DNA of 64,000 bases from Candidatus Moraniibacteriota bacterium (GCA_003507445.1 DNVR01000019.1:76395-140394), one strand, 5' to 3'; counted from the first letter of the stretch, positions 2,530-60,738 are shown. The notes: a model not told the origin generated them from the sequence alone. Made by a program: numbers and translations.

Positions 2530-2558
2530 TTGACAAAAGTCCATTTTGGGTGTATAAT
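2530..2558 (+). promoter_or_regulatory. Consensus sigma70-type promoter (TTGACA-N17-TATAAT)
   Basis: TTGACA at 2530-2535, a 17-nt spacer, then TATAAT at 2553-2558. Lies directly downstream of the recA stop and upstream of the small ORF at 2646. Confidence 0.5.
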
Positions 2559-2566
2559 GGACATAT

Positions 2567-2600
2567 AAGGATAAAAAACGGGTGTCAAAGCCCGTTTTTT
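2567..2600 (+). terminator. Rho-independent terminator after recA
   Basis: aaaaacgggtgtcaaagcccgtttttt: a GC stem (acggg/cccgt) followed by a T-run. Confidence 0.6.
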
Positions 2601-2645
2601 CTTTAATTTAATTAAATTTTGCTCGGGGGAGCAACAAAAACAAAA

Positions 2646-2786
2646 ATGGAAAAAACCCACAAATGCGTACATTGCGCAAAAAGACACAAAGAAGAGTCGC
2701 AAAATGAGGAATTTAACTTCGCAGTGCTAATCGCACTAGTTCCACTTATGGTCTTTACCCTATTTGGACAAATCGGACTTATCTAA
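2646..2786 (+). CDS. Small 46-aa tail-anchored membrane protein (not in the ORF track because it is under 60 aa)
   Basis: ATG 2646 to TAA 2784-2786. Translation MEKTHKCVHCAKRHKEESQNEEFNFAVLIALVPLMVFTLFGQIGLI. GGGGGAG lies 14 nt upstream. Has a C-terminal hydrophobic helix and a CxxC motif, and is bracketed by the consensus promoter at 2530 and the terminator at 2806. Confidence 0.4.
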   Translation: MEKTHKCVHCAKRHKEESQNEEFNFAVLIALVPLMVFTLFGQIGLI

Positions 2787-2805
2787 AAATTGAATAAAAA
2801 TATAT

Positions 2806-2838
2806 ATAAAAAACCATCCTCTCGGATGGTTTTTTATT
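2806..2838 (+). terminator. Rho-independent terminator
   Basis: aaaaaccatcctctcggatggttttttatttttt: stem ccatcc/ggatgg followed by a T-run. Confidence 0.6.
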
Positions 2839-2971: not shown

Positions 2972-3529
2972 TTAGGCTCTGGAAACATAGGCTCCTTTTT
3001 CTGTATTGACGATGATTTTGTCTCCTTCGTTAACGAAAAGGGGAGTTGTAACTTTGAGTCCTGTTTCGAGGGTTACAACTTTGTCTCCGCCTGAAGATGT
3101 GTCGCCCTTGGTTCCGGGTGGAGCTTCAGTGACAACGAGAGTAACCTTAATTGGTAGTTCGATGTTCACTGGAATTTCATTGAAGTTAAGCACGCTTACC
3201 TCAGTTCCTTCAAGCAAATATAAATATGCATCGCCAATAACATCTTTGGCCAACGAAAATTGGTCATAGGTATTCATATCCATAAAAACATAGCCATCTT
3301 GCTCAGCGTAAAGATATTGAGCTTTGGATTTTGACATATCAGCTTCGTCAGCTTTGTCTGATCCATTGAAGGTTTTTTCAAGCACGCTTCCATTAAGAAG
3401 GTTTTTCAACTTTGTTCGAAGCACTGCTCCTGCGCGTCCCGTCTTGGAATGCTCGGCAGACAGTACAACATATGGAGAACCTTCCCAGAGAATATTTTTT
3501 CCTGCTTTGATATCACTTATTCCTAACAT
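2972..3529 (-). CDS. efp: Elongation factor P
   Basis: MLGISDIKAGKNILWEGSPYVVLSAEHSKTGRAGAVLRTKLKNLLNGSVLEKTF... matches the EF-P KOW/OB fold. Start moved to the ATG at 3529; the longer ORF N-terminus (MQCSFCMLHVTCYMLHES) reads through the heptamer repeat. Confidence 0.9.
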   Translation of the reverse strand: MLGISDIKAGKNILWEGSPYVVLSAEHSKTGRAGAVLRTKLKNLLNGSVLEKTFNGSDKADEADMSKSKAQYLYAEQDGYVFMDMNTYDQFSLAKDVIGDAYLYLLEGTEVSVLNFNEIPVNIELPIKVTLVVTEAPPGTKGDTSSGGDKVVTLETGLKVTTPLFVNEGDKIIVNTEKGAYVSRA

Positions 3530-3622
3530 GGATTCATGTAGCATGTAGCATGTAACATGTAGCATGCAAAAACTGCATTGCATTTTTGTTATATGTTATA
3601 TGTTTTATGTTATATGATTTGT
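3527..3622. repeat. Composite heptamer-repeat cassette E1: (CATGTAGC)n - spacer - (TATGTTA)n, abutting the efp start
   Basis: catgtagcatgtagcatgtaacatgtagcatgc ... tttgttatatgttatatgttttatgttatatga. Near-identical to 4437-4542 and related to 57332-57406, 58868-58958 and 62256-62356. Confidence 0.7.
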
Positions 3623-3956: not shown

Positions 3957-4451
3957 TTAAAATGGCACGTCTTCAAGTCTTACTTCGTCCTGTTCTTCAT
4001 CAAGGTTGATGGTTGGAATTTCTTCAGCCATAGGTGTTTGTTGTTGAGCGGTTGGACGAGGTGTTGCAGCTGCTGCTCCCATTGCCATTGGCGCTGGTCT
4101 TGGTCCTGATGAACCTTGTGCGCGTTGTCCCATTTGCATATTTTCAGCCACGATGTCAGTTGTTTTTCTTTCAACTCCGTCTTTGCCAGTGTAAGAACGT
4201 GTTTCTAATCTTCCCTCAAAATATACTTCTTGCCCTTTGGTTAGATATTGTCCAGCGATTTCAGCTAGACGCCCCCAAATTACAATGTTGTGAAATTCTG
4301 ATTTCTCTTGTTTTTGTCCAGCTTTGTCATTCCAAGTTCGGTTGGTAGCGATACCAACTGTGGTCACGGTTTGACCAGAAGGAGTGGTGCGCAATTCTGG
4401 GTCTCTAGTTAAGCGTCCGATGAGTTGAACTTTGTTAAGATTCATGTTCAT
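3957..4451 (-). CDS. ssb: Single-stranded DNA-binding protein
   Basis: MNMNLNKVQLIGRLTRDPELRTTPSGQTVTTVGIATNRTW...: an OB-fold SSB with a Gly/Pro/Ala-rich linker and an acidic tail ending ...EDVPF. Confidence 0.88.
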   Translation of the reverse strand: MNMNLNKVQLIGRLTRDPELRTTPSGQTVTTVGIATNRTWNDKAGQKQEKSEFHNIVIWGRLAEIAGQYLTKGQEVYFEGRLETRSYTGKDGVERKTTDIVAENMQMGQRAQGSSGPRPAPMAMGAAAATPRPTAQQQTPMAEEIPTINLDEEQDEVRLEDVPF

Positions 4452-4542
4452 GTAGCATGTAGCATGTATCATGTAGCATCAGAAGAAAAAATCTATCTTT
4501 TGCATTTTTGTTACACGTTATATGTTTTATGTTATATGATTT
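4437..4542. repeat. Composite heptamer-repeat cassette E2 (copy of E1), between rpsF and ssb
   Basis: catgtagcatgtagcatgtatcatgtagcatc ... tttgttacacgttatatgttttatgttatatga. The ssb start codon lies inside the CATG-repeat part. Confidence 0.7.
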
Positions 4543-15061: not shown

Positions 15062-15176
15062 GTTATTCCGGGCTTGACCCGGAATCTAGGTTTAGCACAT
15101 CATGCTCTATGTTGTAGTTGATTATAATTGGCTAATTAAGTGCTAGATCCTAGATTCCCACCTACGCGGGAATGAC
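15062..15176. mobile_element. GTCAT...ATGAC palindromic MITE-like element (P1 family), intergenic copy 2
   Basis: gttattccgggcttgacccggaatctaggtttagcac ... gtgctagatcctagattcccacctacgcgggaatgac. Upstream is an (ATCTACAA)3 repeat at 15010-15050. Confidence 0.55.
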
Positions 15177-15616: not shown

Positions 15617-15724
15617 TGTTGTCTCCCAGCCTCTTTTTTGAGGTCTTTGTTTTATTGCCTAAAATAGGCGTTTGATTGTAATATATAATTGTTCAGGTAC
15701 AATAGTATATTATATTCCTAAATT

Positions 15725-17212
15725 ATGAAAAAGTCAAGATTACAGCGGAAAGTAGCTGAGCTGCCTCAAAATCCGGGGGTGTATTTTTTTCGTGATCAAG
15801 AGGGTAAGATTTTATATATTGGCAAGGCGACAAACCTTCGTTCCAGAGTTCAGTCGTATTTTCGCAATGTCATCCCGAACTCGTTTCAGGATCTAGATGA
15901 GCCTAGCGAGATGCTGAAACAAGTTCAGCATGACACAAAGGGATTCTTGAGCGTTCCTGGGCGGAGTGAATGGATTGGGTTGATGGTGGCTCAAGTTGTG
16001 GATATTGATTTTGAGCAGACGGATTCAGTTTTGGAAGCGCTGATTTTGGAAAGCAATTTAATTAAAAAATATCAGCCAAAATATAATACTCTGGAGAAAG
16101 ATGATAAATCATTTTCGTATTTTGTTGTCACTAAAGAAGAATTTCCAAAAGTTTTGATTGTGAGAAAAACAGATTTAGTTTGTCATCCCGCACTTGATGC
16201 GGGTTCCAGTCACACGCACAAATCTGGCTCAGCTCTGGATTCCCGCCTACGCGGGAATGACAAGGCCTCAAAGCCTTGTAAAAAAATACAAAATACCAAA
16301 TACCAGATACCATATACCAAGACCTTCGGTCCTTATACGAGCAAGCAACAAATGCAGACCGCGCTGAAAATTATCCGTCGCATTTTCCCGTTTCATGCTG
16401 GGAAACAAAAAACTGAAAAAGGCTGTTTGGATTTTCAAATCGGTCTTTGTCCTGGGCCGTACGCTGATGCAATTTCAAAAACTGATTATAAAAAAAATAT
16501 TCGAGGGATTGAAATGATTTTGCAGGGGAAGAAAAAAAGCTTGATTTCAAAAATGGAAAAAGAAATGCAAGTTTTTTCCAAAAAAAATGAATTTGAAAAA
16601 GCGGCAGTTCTCCGAAATAAAATTTTTGCATTGCAGCACATTCGCGATGTGGCACTGATGACAAGGGAGATGGAACATGGAGCATGGAACATGGAGCATG
16701 AAATACAAGATACAAAATACCAAATACCAAATACCAGAATCGAGGCTTATGATATCTCCAACATCTCTGGACAATATGCTGTTGGTTCAATGGTGGTTTT
16801 TGAAAATGGTATGCCGAATAAATCGCAGTATCGCAAGTTTAAAATAAAAACTGTTGATGGCAGTAATGATGTGGCGATGATGAAAGAAGTTTTGTCGCGA
16901 AGATTTAATAATGATTGGTCAATGCCAGATTTGATTTTGCTGGATGGCGGACAGGGACACGTTAATATGGCAGGGGATTTGGTGCGCGAATTAGGACTAG
17001 ATTTGTTGATTGTCGGTGTGGCTAAAGGTAAGACGCGTAAAAATCTCAATTTCCAATTTCCAATTTCCAATAAAATCCCAATGTCTCAATTTCCAAAAGA
17101 AATGCAAGAGTTTTTAAATGATAAGAATCTGGTTAAATCTATTATGGATGAGGCTCACCGCTTTGCAATTGCTTATCATCGAAAATTACGCAGTAAAAAC
17201 GCCTTAAAATAA
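15725..17212 (+). CDS. uvrC: Excinuclease ABC subunit C (GIY-YIG, UVR and RNase H-like endonuclease domains, no C-terminal HhH), carrying several in-frame repeat/MITE insertions
   Basis: GVYFFRDQEGKILYIGKATNLRSRVQSYFR (GIY-YIG), EFEKAAVLRNKIFALQ (UVR), and a DISNISGQ...LLDGGQGH endonuclease core. Inserted peptides: SFQDLDEPSEMLKQVQHD, CHPALDAGSS...DSRLRGNDK, NTKYQIPYTK, MEHGAWNMEHEIQDTKYQIPNT and NFQFPISN. Confidence 0.85.
   Translation: MKKSRLQRKVAELPQNPGVYFFRDQEGKILYIGKATNLRSRVQSYFRNVIPNSFQDLDEPSEMLKQVQHDTKGFLSVPGRSEWIGLMVAQVVDIDFEQTDSVLEALILESNLIKKYQPKYNTLEKDDKSFSYFVVTKEEFPKVLIVRKTDLVCHPALDAGSSHTHKSGSALDSRLRGNDKASKPCKKIQNTKYQIPYTKTFGPYTSKQQMQTALKIIRRIFPFHAGKQKTEKGCLDFQIGLCPGPYADAISKTDYKKNIRGIEMILQGKKKSLISKMEKEMQVFSKKNEFEKAAVLRNKIFALQHIRDVALMTREMEHGAWNMEHEIQDTKYQIPNTRIEAYDISNISGQYAVGSMVVFENGMPNKSQYRKFKIKTVDGSNDVAMMKEVLSRRFNNDWSMPDLILLDGGQGHVNMAGDLVRELGLDLLIVGVAKGKTRKNLNFQFPISNKIPMSQFPKEMQEFLNDKNLVKSIMDEAHRFAIAYHRKLRSKNALK
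15869..15934. mobile_element. P2-family palindromic MITE inserted in-frame in uvrC (66 bp)
   Basis: gtcatcccgaactcgtttcaggatctag atgagc ctagcgagatgctgaaacaagttcagcatgac. The same GCTGAAAC/GTTCAGC arms occur twice in the elp3-like gene. Confidence 0.6.
16182..16262. mobile_element. P1-family palindromic MITE inserted in-frame in uvrC (~81 bp)
   Basis: gtcatcccgcacttgatgcgggttccag ... ctggattcccgcctacgcgggaatgaca. Same termini and arms as the intergenic P1 copies. Confidence 0.6.
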
Positions 17213-26870: not shown

Positions 26871-26985
26871 GTCATTCCGGACTTGATCCGGAATCCAGGA
26901 TTTAACGCACTATTTTTTCTATTATAATATTCGTAATTTAATACTTGAGATATTAATCCTGGATTCCTGCCTACGCAGGAATGAC
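26871..26985. mobile_element. GTCAT...ATGAC palindromic MITE-like element (P1 family), intergenic copy 3
   Basis: gtcattccggacttgatccggaatccaggatttaacgcac ... atcctggattcctgcctacgcaggaatgac. Confidence 0.6.
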
Positions 26986-31724: not shown

Positions 31725-34676
31725 ATGGCATTCAAAAAAGTTGATCCGAAACAATCATTTCCAGAGATGGAAAAAGAAATTTTGAAATTTTGGGCTCAGG
31801 AGAAAATATTTGAAAAATCTTTGGAAATCCGAAAAGATTCACAGGAATATACTTTTTATGATGGGCCGCCTTTTGCAACAGGCACGCCACACTATGGTCA
31901 TTTGGTTGGATCCACAATGAAAGATGTGGTGCCGCGTTATTGGACGATGCGTGGATTTCACGTGGAAAGAAAATGGGGATGGGATTGTCATGGGCTGCCG
32001 ATTGAAAATATCGTGGAAAAAGAATTAGGTTCAAAAGCTAAAAGTGAAATTGAAAAATTGGGCGTGGAAAAATTTAACGAACTTTGTCGTAGTAAAGTTC
32101 TGGAATATGTTGACGTCTGGAAAGTTGTCATCAATCGTTTGGGACGCTGGGCTGATATGGAAAATGCTTACAAGACGATGGATTTGCCGTATATGGAATC
32201 TGTCTGGTGGGTCTTTAAGGAGCTTTGGAATAAGGGTCTTATTTATGAAGGTTATCGTTCGATGCACGTTTGTCCTCGCTGCGAGACTACACTTTCTCAG
32301 CAAGAGGTTAGTGAAGGATATATTGATGTGAAAGATTTATCAGTTATTGCGAAATTCGAACTTATTGACCCCGTAAAATCCTCGCAAGACTCGGATCACG
32401 GGGCAGGTGAACCGAAGACTTTCATTTTGGCCTGGACAACAACTCCTTGGACTTTGATTGGTAATGTGGCGCTAGCTGTTAATCCAGAAATGGAATATGT
32501 CTATGTGGAAACAATAAACTCGGAAAAAGATGGAACATTTTCGGAAGAAGTTTTTATTGTGGCTAAAGATAGAGTGGGTGATTTATTTAAAGATAAAAAA
32601 ATTGAAATCGTGCGTGAAGTTTTAGGTTCACAATTGGTTGGCAAAAAATATAAACCAGTTTTTGATTATTACGCTACGTTTGATATTGAAAATTTTGAGA
32701 ATGGTTGGAAAGTTGTGGGCGCAGATTTTGTGGGAGCTGAAGACGGAACAGGCGTTGTGCATATTGCTCCGGCCTTCGGAGAGGACGATTTAAATTTGGG
32801 CAAAGAAAAGAATTTGCCGTTTGTGCAGCACGTTGGAATGGATGGAATCATAAAAAGCCAAGCTGGCGAATTTGCTGGACTGCATATAAAACCAACTGAT
32901 GATCGCACTGCAACTGACGTGGAAATTATAAAATATCTGGCTAAAAGCGGAACTCTTTTTGCCAAAGAAAAATATGAGCATAGTTATCCTCATTGTTGGA
33001 GATGTGACACTCCACTAATGAATTATGCAACCAGCTCTTGGTTTGTGAAAGTTGCTGATATAAAATCAGATGCAATTGATTTGGCCAAAGAAATTCGTTG
33101 GTCTCCTGAACATATTAAGGAGGGACGTTTTGGAAAGTGGCTGGAAGGTGCACGCGATTGGTCAATTTCACGTCAGCGTTTTTGGGCTTCTGTTATACCA
33201 ATTTGGAAATGTGAGTGCGGAGAAATGAAGGTGTTTGGATCCGTGATGGAGCTCGAGGCTGCTAGTGGAGAAAAAATAACAGACCTGCATAAACACATTG
33301 TCGATAAAATTGTGCTTAAATGTGATTCTTGCGGCAAGGATATGCATCGAGTGCCAGATGTCTTGGACACTTGGTTCGATTCTGGTTCAATGCCATATGC
33401 GCAACAACATTATCCTTTTGAAAATGCTGAGCAATTTGAAAAGAATTTTCCAGCTGAATTCATTGCGGAAGGTGTGGATCAAACACGCGCTTGGTTTTAT
33501 TATTTGCATATTATTGCAAGTGCAATTAAAAAAGCTCCTGCTTATAAAAATGTAATTGTGAACGGAACAGTTTTGGCAGAGGATGGAAAGAAAATGAGTA
33601 AGCGTCTTTCGAATTATCCTGATCCAATGGAAATGTTTGAAAAATATGGTGCAGATTCAGTTAGATTTTATTTGATGAGCTCACCAGTGGTGGCTGCACA
33701 AAATTTGAATTTTTCAGAAAAAGATGTGGCAGAAATTGTGCGTGGAATGATGCGAATGTTTTGGAATTCGTATTCCTTTTTTGTGCTGTATGCAAATATT
33801 GATAAATGGGAACATAAAGACCAATTCACACATTCAACTGCAACGAATTTATTGGATCGTTGGATTCTTTCTGAGCTTAACACTTTGGTAATTTCAGTGC
33901 ATAGCGGAATGGAAAACTATGAATTGCATCGAGCTGCTCGAGCATTTCCAAAATTTATTGATGATATGTCCAACTGGTATGTTCGAAGATCGCGCAAGCG
34001 TTTTTGGAAAAGTGAAAATGATGGCGACAAAAGCCAGGCATATGCAACACTTCATCACGTGCTTGTGACACTGACTAAAATGATGGCACCGTTTTCACCT
34101 TTTATCGCTGAAGAAATTTATAAAAATCTTACTGGCAAGGAGTCTGTGCATTTGGCTGATTTGCCGACAGGGGATTATCATCACGTCGATGAGCTTTTGA
34201 ATGATCAAATGCACAAAGTTCGTGAGATTGTGACTCAAGGTTTGCAACTTCGCTCTCAAGCTAAAATCAAAGTTCGTCAACCGCTGGCTAAATTTTCAAT
34301 TTTCGATTTTCAATTTCCGAATGAATTGGTTGAGATAATCAAGGATGAATTGAATGTGAGAGAAATTATTATGGATCGGGAAGATAAAAATGAAATGATT
34401 TTGGATACAGAAATCACAGAAGATCTTGCGCAAGAAGGTGTGGCACGTGAGATTGTGCGGCACATTCAAGAGATGCGTAAAGAAGCAGGCTATGATGTTG
34501 ACAATCGCATTAAAGTGTGCTATAATGGAAAATCAGAGGAATTTGAGAAGTTTAATGCTCTGATTGCCAAAGAAACCCTTGCTGACGCCATTACTGAAGG
34601 TGTTTGCCAAGACGCTGATTTGACCAAGGAACTTAAATTAGACGAAAAAGTGCTAGTAATTTCTATTAAAAGATGA
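31725..34676 (+). CDS. ileS: Isoleucine--tRNA ligase
   Basis: PPFATGTPHYGHL (HIGH), KMSKRL (KMSKS), and a CP1 editing domain. A possible in-frame repeat-derived segment KFSIFDFQFPNE lies at 34290-34319. Confidence 0.93.
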   Translation: MAFKKVDPKQSFPEMEKEILKFWAQEKIFEKSLEIRKDSQEYTFYDGPPFATGTPHYGHLVGSTMKDVVPRYWTMRGFHVERKWGWDCHGLPIENIVEKELGSKAKSEIEKLGVEKFNELCRSKVLEYVDVWKVVINRLGRWADMENAYKTMDLPYMESVWWVFKELWNKGLIYEGYRSMHVCPRCETTLSQQEVSEGYIDVKDLSVIAKFELIDPVKSSQDSDHGAGEPKTFILAWTTTPWTLIGNVALAVNPEMEYVYVETINSEKDGTFSEEVFIVAKDRVGDLFKDKKIEIVREVLGSQLVGKKYKPVFDYYATFDIENFENGWKVVGADFVGAEDGTGVVHIAPAFGEDDLNLGKEKNLPFVQHVGMDGIIKSQAGEFAGLHIKPTDDRTATDVEIIKYLAKSGTLFAKEKYEHSYPHCWRCDTPLMNYATSSWFVKVADIKSDAIDLAKEIRWSPEHIKEGRFGKWLEGARDWSISRQRFWASVIPIWKCECGEMKVFGSVMELEAASGEKITDLHKHIVDKIVLKCDSCGKDMHRVPDVLDTWFDSGSMPYAQQHYPFENAEQFEKNFPAEFIAEGVDQTRAWFYYLHIIASAIKKAPAYKNVIVNGTVLAEDGKKMSKRLSNYPDPMEMFEKYGADSVRFYLMSSPVVAAQNLNFSEKDVAEIVRGMMRMFWNSYSFFVLYANIDKWEHKDQFTHSTATNLLDRWILSELNTLVISVHSGMENYELHRAARAFPKFIDDMSNWYVRRSRKRFWKSENDGDKSQAYATLHHVLVTLTKMMAPFSPFIAEEIYKNLTGKESVHLADLPTGDYHHVDELLNDQMHKVREIVTQGLQLRSQAKIKVRQPLAKFSIFDFQFPNELVEIIKDELNVREIIMDREDKNEMILDTEITEDLAQEGVAREIVRHIQEMRKEAGYDVDNRIKVCYNGKSEEFEKFNALIAKETLADAITEGVCQDADLTKELKLDEKVLVISIKR

Positions 34677-60467: not shown

Positions 60468-60543
60468 GGGCCGGTAGCTCACCTGGTAGAGCGCCTCACT
60501 TGCACTGAGGAGGTAGCGGGTTCAAGTCCTGTCCGGTCCACCA
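60468..60543 (+). tRNA. tRNA-Ala (anticodon TGC), CCA encoded
   Basis: GGGCCGGTAGCTCACCTGGTAGAGCGCCTCACTTGCACTGAGGAGGTAGCGGGTTCAAGTCCTGTCCGGTCCACCA. Cloverleaf folds with the G3:U70 alanine identity pair. Confidence 0.9.
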
Positions 60544-60620
60544 AACTAACTAACAACTCACAACTAGCAACTAACAACGTTCATTTGTTGATAGTTGTAT
60601 GTTATCAGTTATAAGTTATT
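60544..60620. repeat. Hairpin-forming ACAACT / AGTTGT repeat module between the two tRNAs
   Basis: caactcacaactagcaactaacaacg ... gttgatagttgtatgttatcagttataagtt (inverted halves). Confidence 0.5.
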
Positions 60621-60622
60621 TT

Positions 60623-60696
60623 GGGCTTATAGCTCAGCTGGTTAGAGCGCGTCACTGATAATGACGAGGTCTCAAGTTCGAATCTTGATAAGCCCA
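60623..60696 (+). tRNA. tRNA-Ile (anticodon GAT)
   Basis: GGGCTTATAGCTCAGCTGGTTAGAGCGCGTCACTGATAATGACGAGGTCTCAAGTTCGAATCTTGATAAGCCCA. Good cloverleaf; no encoded CCA. Confidence 0.9.
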
Positions 60697-60738
60697 CAGT
60701 TTTTTTATAAAATATTTTGCAGTAAAAAGGAGGCAGAA

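Follow-up and report, generated by a model that had tools for sequence, protein, structure and literature searches.

Organization of the locus between recA and efp

The window, a stretch of 64,000 nucleotides from a Candidatus Moraniibacteriota genome, carries a small unit on its plus strand between recA and efp. It consists of a promoter, two hairpins that precede a short open reading frame (ORF), the ORF itself, and a terminator. A preliminary description of this DNA had proposed the promoter, the ORF, and the terminator. That layout holds, coordinates included, but a conserved terminator hairpin in the leader had been left out.

The promoter (2530 to 2558, plus strand, counted from the first letter of the window) is of the sigma-70 type and reads TTGACA-N17-TATAAT. 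It matches the consensus at 12 of 12 positions, exactly as had been claimed. Only three sites in the 64-kb window fit TTGACW-N17-TATAMT, whereas 0.05 would be expected, so the promoter is unlikely to have arisen by chance. Consensus promoters of this kind are few in the window. The promoter is also conserved. We collected related loci as described below, and 33 distinct ones had enough unmasked upstream sequence for this analysis. All 33 have a promoter with at least 10 of 12 matches and a spacer of exactly 17 nt. We infer that transcription starts at about 2565, an A that lies 7 nt past the -10 box.

The first element downstream of the promoter is the leader hairpin (2566 to 2603, plus strand), which resembles an intrinsic terminator or attenuator and was identified by a scan, by folding, and with a covariance model. 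Its core stem (AAAAAACGGG, UGUCAAAG, and CCCGUUUUUU) occupies 2573 to 2600 on the plus strand. The sequence of this region is AAAAAACGGGTG-TCAAAG-CCCGTTTTTT, and it lies between the promoter and the ORF, beginning approximately 15 nt past the -10 box.

A second hairpin in the 5' untranslated region (2619 to 2634, plus strand) has a G-rich loop. It reads UUGCUC-GGGG-GAGCAA in the RNA (TTGCTC-GGGG-GAGCAA in the DNA) and has a folding energy of -7.9 kcal/mol (z = -3.6). Close relatives have the same hairpin. Its GGGG loop is found on different stems in loci L008, L017, and L037, and the hairpin is missing from L018, L019, L031, and L040. It is followed by an A-rich, unstructured segment, CAAAAACAAAA (2635 to 2645, plus strand), that leads into the start codon. 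In nearly all loci, AAAACAAAAA is found directly 5' of the ATG.

The ORF (2646 to 2786, plus strand) has 46 codons and a stop codon (MEKTHKCVHCAKRHKEESQNEEFNFAVLIALVPLMVFTLFGQIGLI). Translation from the ATG at 2646 to the TAA at 2786 gives precisely the peptide that had been proposed. Downstream of it is a bidirectional intrinsic terminator (2806 to 2837), which our scan found on both strands. It has a 14-bp stem, a CTCT loop, an A-tract on the 5' side, and a T-tract on the 3' side, with TTTTTTG directly after the hairpin. It folds with -17.1 kcal/mol (z = -6.6). This confirms the clean terminator that had been placed at 2806 to 2838. When we read six distant loci by eye (L040 to L045), each had a hairpin and T-tract 3' of the stop codon.

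The usual flanking genes are recA and efp, and this includes the loci of the distant family members P0043 and P0052. However, the flanks differ elsewhere. They are tig-clpP and gpmI in L018, L019, and L043, and other genes in L016, L017, L042, and L044, with some of the upstream genes being divergent. The recorded neighbors are FtsK, a RodZ-like protein, RecA, EF-P, S18, SSB, and S6, and no syntenic partner gene was found across the loci. Even where the flanking genes differ, the order of promoter, hairpin, ORF, and terminator is constant. This is a self-contained, stand-alone transcription unit.

The ORF and its protein product

The ORF had been described as unannotated. This is correct for the genome analyzed here, but orthologues in other MAGs have been called and named "hypothetical protein." The segment from 2521 to 2845 is identical to one in GCA_003510165.1 (DOKX01000004.1), and no gene is called there between recA and efp. 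When the 46-amino-acid product was looked up exactly in a protein collection, no record matched, consistent with a missing gene call. However, when we searched 5.8 billion proteins, we obtained 20 homologues of 46 to 61 amino acids, with E values of 1e-12 to 1e-22. They come from Moranbacteria or uncultured-bacterium MAGs, and those that have been given a name are all called "hypothetical protein."

Scans of genomes and metagenomes yielded 39 loci, and exact look-ups of distant members added six more, for a total of 45. A full profile search extended the family to 67 clusters (50% identity). The named genomes are Parcubacteria, Moranbacteria, or Paceibacteria MAGs, except for a few TPA MAGs labeled "Bdellovibrionales." All of the recovered loci come from CPR/Patescibacteria MAGs, and as found here, the family appears to belong to Parcubacteria/Moranbacteria-type CPR bacteria alone. 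Because our broader alignment (A2) proved too diverse for locus finding, the scans used Moranbacteria-level patterns, which makes this taxonomic breadth a lower bound.

Loss of the reading frame in relatives had been named as an observation that would count against a gene. Instead, all 45 loci share the reading frame, the ATG, and the position of the stop. The stop codon comes directly after ...GLF or ...GLI in every locus fetched. The start is fixed by L006, L007, and L008, which have an in-frame stop codon 1 to 4 codons 5' of the ATG. A comparison of dN/dS across orthologues had also been suggested, and the median is 0.10 among unsaturated pairs, which is a coding pattern. In 28 distinct sequences with a gap-free alignment of the final 40 codons, we obtained a pN of 0.20 and a pS of 0.78, and synonymous sites are largely saturated. 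Third codon positions are variable in 40 of 40 codons. In the part that encodes the hydrophobic segment, the entropy is 0.085 bits at second positions versus 1.455 bits at third positions. This three-base pattern of substitution is the signature of translation and not of a constraint on RNA or DNA.

These data bear directly on whether there is a gene here at all. An ORF could occur by chance between a real promoter and a real terminator, and owe its conservation to constraint on the RNA or DNA. The ATG at 2646 lacks a closely spaced Shine-Dalgarno motif, and the ORF was not called in the source assembly, both of which fit that explanation. However, a Shine-Dalgarno-like motif 3 to 12 nt 5' of the first ATG is rare in this window (approximately 3 of 38 long ORFs). 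Its absence here is therefore uninformative and is no argument against translation. A chance ORF is also at odds with the three-base periodicity, the synonymous saturation, the low pN, and the conserved start and stop, and we saw no frame-breaking indels in relatives. We give this explanation almost no credence. Judged by how its sequence has evolved, this ORF is a genuine gene on which purifying selection acts strongly at the protein level, with the constraint concentrated in a C-terminal helix. It is among the most constrained sequences of its neighborhood.

The protein encoded in the window has two distinct parts. Residues 1 to 22 are hydrophilic (hydropathy -1.95), with five Lys/Arg residues, five Asp/Glu residues, and a C7-x-x-C10 motif. 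Residues 23 to 46 (hydropathy +2.15) are predicted to be a hydrophobic membrane helix. There is no charged residue past position 22, and the chain ends 0 to 1 residue after the helix. AlphaFold2, run with a 60-sequence alignment, predicted a single helix from residue 10 to 45 with a mean pLDDT of 80, rising to 90 over residues 21 to 40. The rest of the family has the same anatomy. A short and variable N-terminus, usually acidic and usually with a CxxC motif, is followed by a near-invariant helix that ends the chain (EEfnfAvLiALvPLlVFTlFGQiGLf). Among 60 clusters, L28 and P33 are invariant, A26, G44, L45, M1, and C7 are at least 90% conserved, and T38, F40, A30, E21, and E22 are conserved at 77 to 87%. 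This conservation is spread around the helix (conservation moment at 100 degrees of 0.24; permutation P = 0.41). The anatomy and the conservation together point to the helix as the core of the family.

The product had been called a tail-anchored micro-protein. The architecture agrees with this, because a hydrophobic helix of 24 residues ends the chain, placing it within the last ~25 residues, and there is no signal peptide. The N-in topology that goes with this term is less certain. N-termini range from 22 to approximately 49 residues. Most clusters carry a net negative charge there, and in several, Lys and Arg are missing altogether. An N-in topology is plausible for the Lys/Arg-containing Moranbacteria members, but these acidic N-termini mean that N-out is also possible, and so the topology is ambiguous.

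The single CxxC motif that had been described is present, as C7 and C10 in the window protein. In the family, it lies at the helix N-cap, often as CPHC. However, it is not universal, because four of the 60 aligned clusters have no Cys (P0063, P0069, P0070, and P0073). Across this alignment, CxxC is a frequent but dispensable feature.

The leader hairpin and possible control of the ORF

All 33 loci have a GC-rich stem-loop with a U-tract directly after it, located between the inferred transcription start and the ORF. CGGGTG starts 14 to 24 nt past the -10 box in every one of them, most often at 20 nt (20 loci). In contrast, the hairpin and the ATG are separated by a spacer that varies from 56 to 230 nt across loci. 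The window has 45 nt between the two. There, the CGGGUG 5' arm is at 2579 to 2584 and the U-tract is at 2595 to 2600, and the hairpin folds with -16.6 kcal/mol (z = -5.2). Across loci, the hairpin always combines an A-rich 5' flank with a CGGG:CCCG core and a tract of four to six U residues.

An alignment of 26 leader sequences supports this structure. Paired cells make up 92% of the total, compared with 39 to 65% when the partner strand is slid by 1 to 3 columns. The pair at columns 13 and 34, which adjoins the core, covaries (AU in 15 sequences, CG in 8, GC in 2, and GU in 1), and the observed covariation score was equalled in none of 500 shuffle trials. A covariance model derived from these sequences scored 45.8 bits at 2566 to 2603. 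Its other matches in the 64-kb window are ordinary terminators, none of which exceeds 22 bits. In 244 kb of related loci, it found ORF-linked copies alone. Three loci outside the model-building set (L043, L044, and L045) have the same promoter and ACGGGTG.

Conservation of the hairpin is uneven. The CGGGUG 5' arm is invariant, whereas the loop (4 to 21 nt) and parts of the 3' arm vary. The exception is L043, in which GGGUG is in the loop of a different stem. The invariant arm and this exception suggest a constraint on sequence as well as on structure.

Known RNA families do not account for the leader. At the gathering threshold, Rfam 15 matched two tRNAs alone in the window and left the leader unmatched. 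At an E value of up to 10, the matches to the leader were generic, driven by its terminator, and no higher than 17 bits. ARAGORN found no tRNA or tmRNA at this locus. We also considered and rejected two other roles for this sequence. Some loci have mini-ORFs over the hairpin, with ATG or GTG starts (for example, MKIKNG and MRTG, each followed by a stop codon), but the window has none, and neither frame nor length is conserved, which does not fit a leader peptide. A DNA operator, such as a LexA box, was rejected in favor of an RNA hairpin because the half-site spacing, which corresponds to the loop, runs from 4 to 21 nt. That is incompatible with a site for a dimeric repressor.

Small-RNA genes are built in this way, with a consensus promoter and, directly after it, a terminator that looks efficient. 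The promoter and hairpin might then be a separate gene for a tiny RNA of approximately 40 nt, with the ORF merely syntenic and expressed from a weak promoter of its own within the AT-rich spacer. The variable length of that spacer, from 56 to 230 nt, fits with this, as does a second TATAAT-type site (GTGTATAAT) in the spacers of L003 and L004. However, in 33 of 33 loci the hairpin stays linked to the ORF even though the flanks have been rearranged, and there is no orphan hairpin in the 64-kb window or the 244 kb of related loci. Furthermore, the spacer is merely 45 to 58 nt or so in the window, L031, and L040, and a scan of the window's spacer for plus-strand promoter-like sites (at least 9 of 12 matches) found none between the hairpin and the ATG. 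Weaker, AT-rich promoters in the spacer are possible, but we consider a separate RNA gene improbable.

The main competitor is that the hairpin does its work constitutively. It might stop transcription reading in from recA, trim the output of a strong promoter by a fixed fraction, and/or shield the 5' end of the mRNA, and the micro-protein would be made constitutively. In the window, there is no other terminator between the recA stop codon at 2468 and position 2573. The symmetry of the A-tract and U-tract makes the leader hairpin bidirectional, as is the 3' terminator. The 5' end itself can be buried through pairing between the purine-rich 5' tail and the pyrimidine tail. Finally, the 5' arm has no alternative pairing partner in the 13-nt 5' tail, and without an antiterminator pairing of that sort, the sequence is just as compatible with a constitutive role. 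However, three observations oppose this explanation. First, the hairpin is kept in L017, L042, and L043, whose upstream genes are divergent, and so it is not simply a terminator for its neighbor. Second, structure alone leaves the invariance of ACGGGUG unexplained, because the loop and 3' arm drift and the protein N-termini are dissimilar. Third, pairing of the basal extension, formed by the purine 5' tail and pyrimidine 3' tail, shows no clear gain over slid controls (81% versus 67 to 75%). We therefore did not accept this extension as conserved structure beyond approximately six A-U/G-U pairs. A constitutive hairpin is possible, but we doubt it.

The reading we prefer is that the leader hairpin probably gates expression of the ORF. 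Transcription would start at approximately 2565 from the near-consensus sigma-70 promoter. The first 40 nt of the RNA would fold into the hairpin, with its GC stem and U-tract, and terminate most transcripts, making a short RNA the default product. Only read-through RNA would carry the ORF, 45 nt beyond the hairpin, and translation would begin from an A-rich leader independently of a Shine-Dalgarno motif. The amount of read-through would be set by a trans-acting factor that recognizes ACGGGUG in the nascent RNA. We favor a trans-acting factor as most likely because ACGGGUG is invariant while the loop and 3' arm drift, and because the 13-nt tail is too short to form an antiterminator. The factor might be a protein or the 30S subunit, although the 30S subunit is a speculative candidate. 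GGGUGA could pair, with one G-U, with UCACCU of the 16S rRNA 3' tail, as this tail is known from established rRNA sequences.

The protein would act through its membrane helix. It might form a homo-oligomer, or it might be a small subunit or modulator that packs on a partner membrane protein. A helix that is rich in Pro, Thr, Gly, and Gln and conserved all round, together with the lack of a syntenic partner, fits a homo-oligomer or a buried subunit, although gene order gives the subunit role no direct support. In most lineages, the Cys pair at the helix N-cap might bind metal, with a Cys4 site assembled from two chains, or form a disulfide.

Altogether, we propose that this locus encodes a member of an undescribed CPR family of small single-pass membrane proteins that act via their helix, expressed from a strong promoter that is gated by a promoter-proximal attenuator. 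We assign this proposal a probability of roughly 0.55. It can be taken further. The leader, with its invariant ACGGGUG in a terminator 5' arm some 14 to 20 nt past the transcription start, might represent a new minimal class of attenuator that depends on a trans-acting factor (an RNA-binding protein, the anti-Shine-Dalgarno tail of the 30S subunit in an otherwise Shine-Dalgarno-poor organism, or a small ligand), found throughout the Parcubacteria and dedicated to one gene, with that gene encoding a near-universal and hitherto unrecognized micro-subunit of a core membrane machine in these episymbionts with reduced genomes. This extended version is unlikely on present evidence.

Novelty of the family and comparison with known systems

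The small genomes of CPR/Patescibacteria are rich in genes that lack annotation, and proteins of fewer than 50 amino acids are routinely missed, as happened in the source assembly of this locus. To our knowledge, almost nothing has been established about gene regulation in these bacteria. Small membrane proteins and leader terminators are known as kinds, but this family and its ACGGGUG leader are absent from Pfam, NCBIfam, Rfam, and the literature that we searched. One study described 20 Parcubacteria-enriched families, most of them hypothetical and 12 of them membrane predicted (Méheust et al. 2019; PMC6744442). Our searches of the literature on tail-anchored or small membrane proteins of CPR bacteria found nothing specific to this family. 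The constraint on the ORF, its promoter, and its dedicated leader suggest an abundant, tightly dosed, lineage-specific membrane component. The analysis also provides a family definition for gene callers and for Pfam/NCBIfam, a candidate cis-regulatory RNA that is not in Rfam, and a compact and testable cassette of promoter, attenuator, and ORF.

Sequence searches of Pfam, NCBIfam, and PDB gave no match to the family at threshold. The sole PDB match was to the CxxC metal-binding domain of ATP7B (E = 1.8), which we treated as chance. Below threshold, two profiles reflect a shared arrangement in which a CxxC knuckle adjoins a hydrophobic membrane segment. TIGR04104 (cxxc_20_cxxc) weakly matched 28 of 60 members over profile positions 24 to 59, which cover its second CxxC and the helix. 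Scores were 14 to 21 bits against a cutoff of 45, with 15.8 for the window protein and 21.1 for P0014 (the highest of those shown individually), and the best E value was 6.5e-5. The LITAF-like family (PF10601) weakly matched 10 of 60 members, with a best score of 17.9 bits (P0014) against 23.8. However, the proteins described here have one CxxC rather than the two pairs of a zinc ribbon, which in TIGR04104 are approximately 20 residues apart, no Cys after the helix, and four clusters with no Cys at all.

TorE and NapE (PF06796) are a second point of comparison. These 50- to 60-amino-acid, single-helix "crutch" proteins bind the membrane anchor of the TorC and NapC cytochromes (PMC6134056). They are encoded in tor and nap operons, improve the anchoring and multimerization of TorC and NapC, and show conservation along a single helix face (PMC6134056). 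Our family is similar to them in size, in having a conserved Glu before a single hydrophobic helix that contains Pro and Gly, and in that function would lie in the helix. The NapE profile weakly matched 12 of 60 members (E < 1), with 18.2 bits as the top score (E = 3e-4 to 2e-3) compared with a gathering score of 25 bits, and it did not match the window protein. However, there are no nap or tor genes near this ORF, conservation runs all round the helix, NapE and TorE are described in Proteobacteria and not with a CxxC, and here the helix ends the protein. Because the tests of score, operon context, and a single conserved face all failed, we did not place the family with TorE/NapE.

The wider class of tail-anchored or single-helix regulators of membrane machines offers an analogy. 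Phospholamban/sarcolipin, KdpF, MgtR/MgtS, AcrZ, and CydX are micro-proteins of 30 to 60 amino acids with one conserved membrane helix. Phospholamban too ends with its helix. However, there is no sequence relation to any of these proteins, and no partner gene adjoins this ORF, so the likeness is one of analogy. That analogy draws in part on a review (PMC12648545).

Type I toxins such as TisB, DinQ, Hok, and Fst also resemble this locus, in their small hydrophobic peptide, structured leader, and recA neighborhood. The ORF might encode a membrane-damaging peptide that is held in check at the RNA level, and it adjoins recA in most loci, like the SOS-linked TisB, DinQ, and SidA. However, we found no consistent antisense promoter. 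Candidates were weak (9 to 10 of 12 matches), were present in only 10 of 36 loci, and varied in position, and there were none on the minus strand between 2500 and 2900 in the window. Type I toxins evolve fast, whereas this gene is under deep purifying selection, with a dN/dS of 0.10 and a helix that is near-invariant over 67 clusters. It is also single copy in the window, and the unit persists in several lineages that have lost the linkage to recA. A type I toxin is therefore very improbable.

The leader itself is best compared with promoter-proximal attenuators that have no purely RNA-based switch, including lambda PR'-tR' with its Q protein, the Bacillus subtilis pyrG leader, and other cases of protein-dependent antitermination. 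It does not have the start-site G-run needed for reiterative transcription, and its ACGGGUG has no counterpart in those systems. The PyrG_leader model of Rfam reached 23.7 bits (threshold, 65), and this match was to the 3' terminator, not the leader. The similarity is in layout alone: a strong promoter, an intrinsic terminator within tens of nucleotides of it that would make a short RNA by default, and read-through that would need an additional input.

Leaders of the micro-protein gene and further promoters

Some related loci carrying the micro-protein gene have extra elements ahead of the ORF. In L003 and L004, the leader hairpin is followed by a second GTGTATAAT promoter-like site, which precedes the ORF by ~40 to 70 nt. 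One or two additional hairpin modules are inserted in the 5' UTRs of L007, L010, L011, L026, and L037. An example is ACCCGCC...GGCGAGGU, and each inserted module is followed by a copy of AAACAAAAA. From these sequences, the 5' UTR of the micro-protein gene appears to grow by modular insertion.

Besides the ORF's own promoter, we found two near-consensus promoters in the window. TTGACT-N17-TATAAT (15709-15737, minus strand) is upstream of an ORF with a signal-peptide-like start, and TTGACA-N17-TATAAT (34498-34526, plus strand) is within a coding region, ~180 nt from its end.

Housekeeping genes, translation initiation, and tRNAs

Facing short-repeat arms, either (CATATAA)n versus (TGCTACA)n or (ACAACT)n versus (AGTTGT)n, were found directly upstream of housekeeping start codons. 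They occur before recA (1340-1427), between rpsR and efp (3527-3622), and before ssb (4445-4540). The element at 3527-3622 folds into a strong hairpin only on the strand antisense to efp, the plus strand, at -39.3 kcal/mol (z = -6.1); the efp sense strand reaches only -14.1 kcal/mol (z = -0.5). This strand asymmetry is G-U-dependent. Copies of the recA-type element are also upstream of efp in L001 and L011.

In the whole window, only about 3 of the 38 ORFs of at least 200 codons have a Shine-Dalgarno (SD)-like motif 3 to 12 nt upstream of the first ATG, and ORF leaders are AT-rich or A-rich. The rarity of the motif and the leader composition suggest that initiation in this organism is largely SD-independent.

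tRNA-Ala(TGC) and tRNA-Ile(GAT) are 80 nt apart at 60468-60697. These two tRNA genes typically occur together in rRNA spacers, but at Rfam gathering thresholds the window gave no rRNA hit.

The region between the micro-protein gene and efp

In several Moranbacteria (L001, L003, L004, L006, L008, and L010), a same-strand gene encoding 234 to 315 aa is inserted between the micro-protein gene and efp, ~200 to 1200 nt downstream of the ORF. Its product starts MEEEKK... and has an acidic N-terminus. The window does not have this gene. A ~120-nt insert (2838-2962) separates the ORF's terminator from efp, and it is missing from the close strain L048 and from L002. At its boundaries, the insert has hairpin units of the form GTCATTCC(T/G)G...GGAAT. 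Two further copies of its palindromic unit are in the window, at 15062-15085 and 26871-26894 (3 hits versus 0.33 expected). The insert and its palindromic unit look like a REP/MITE-like repeat.
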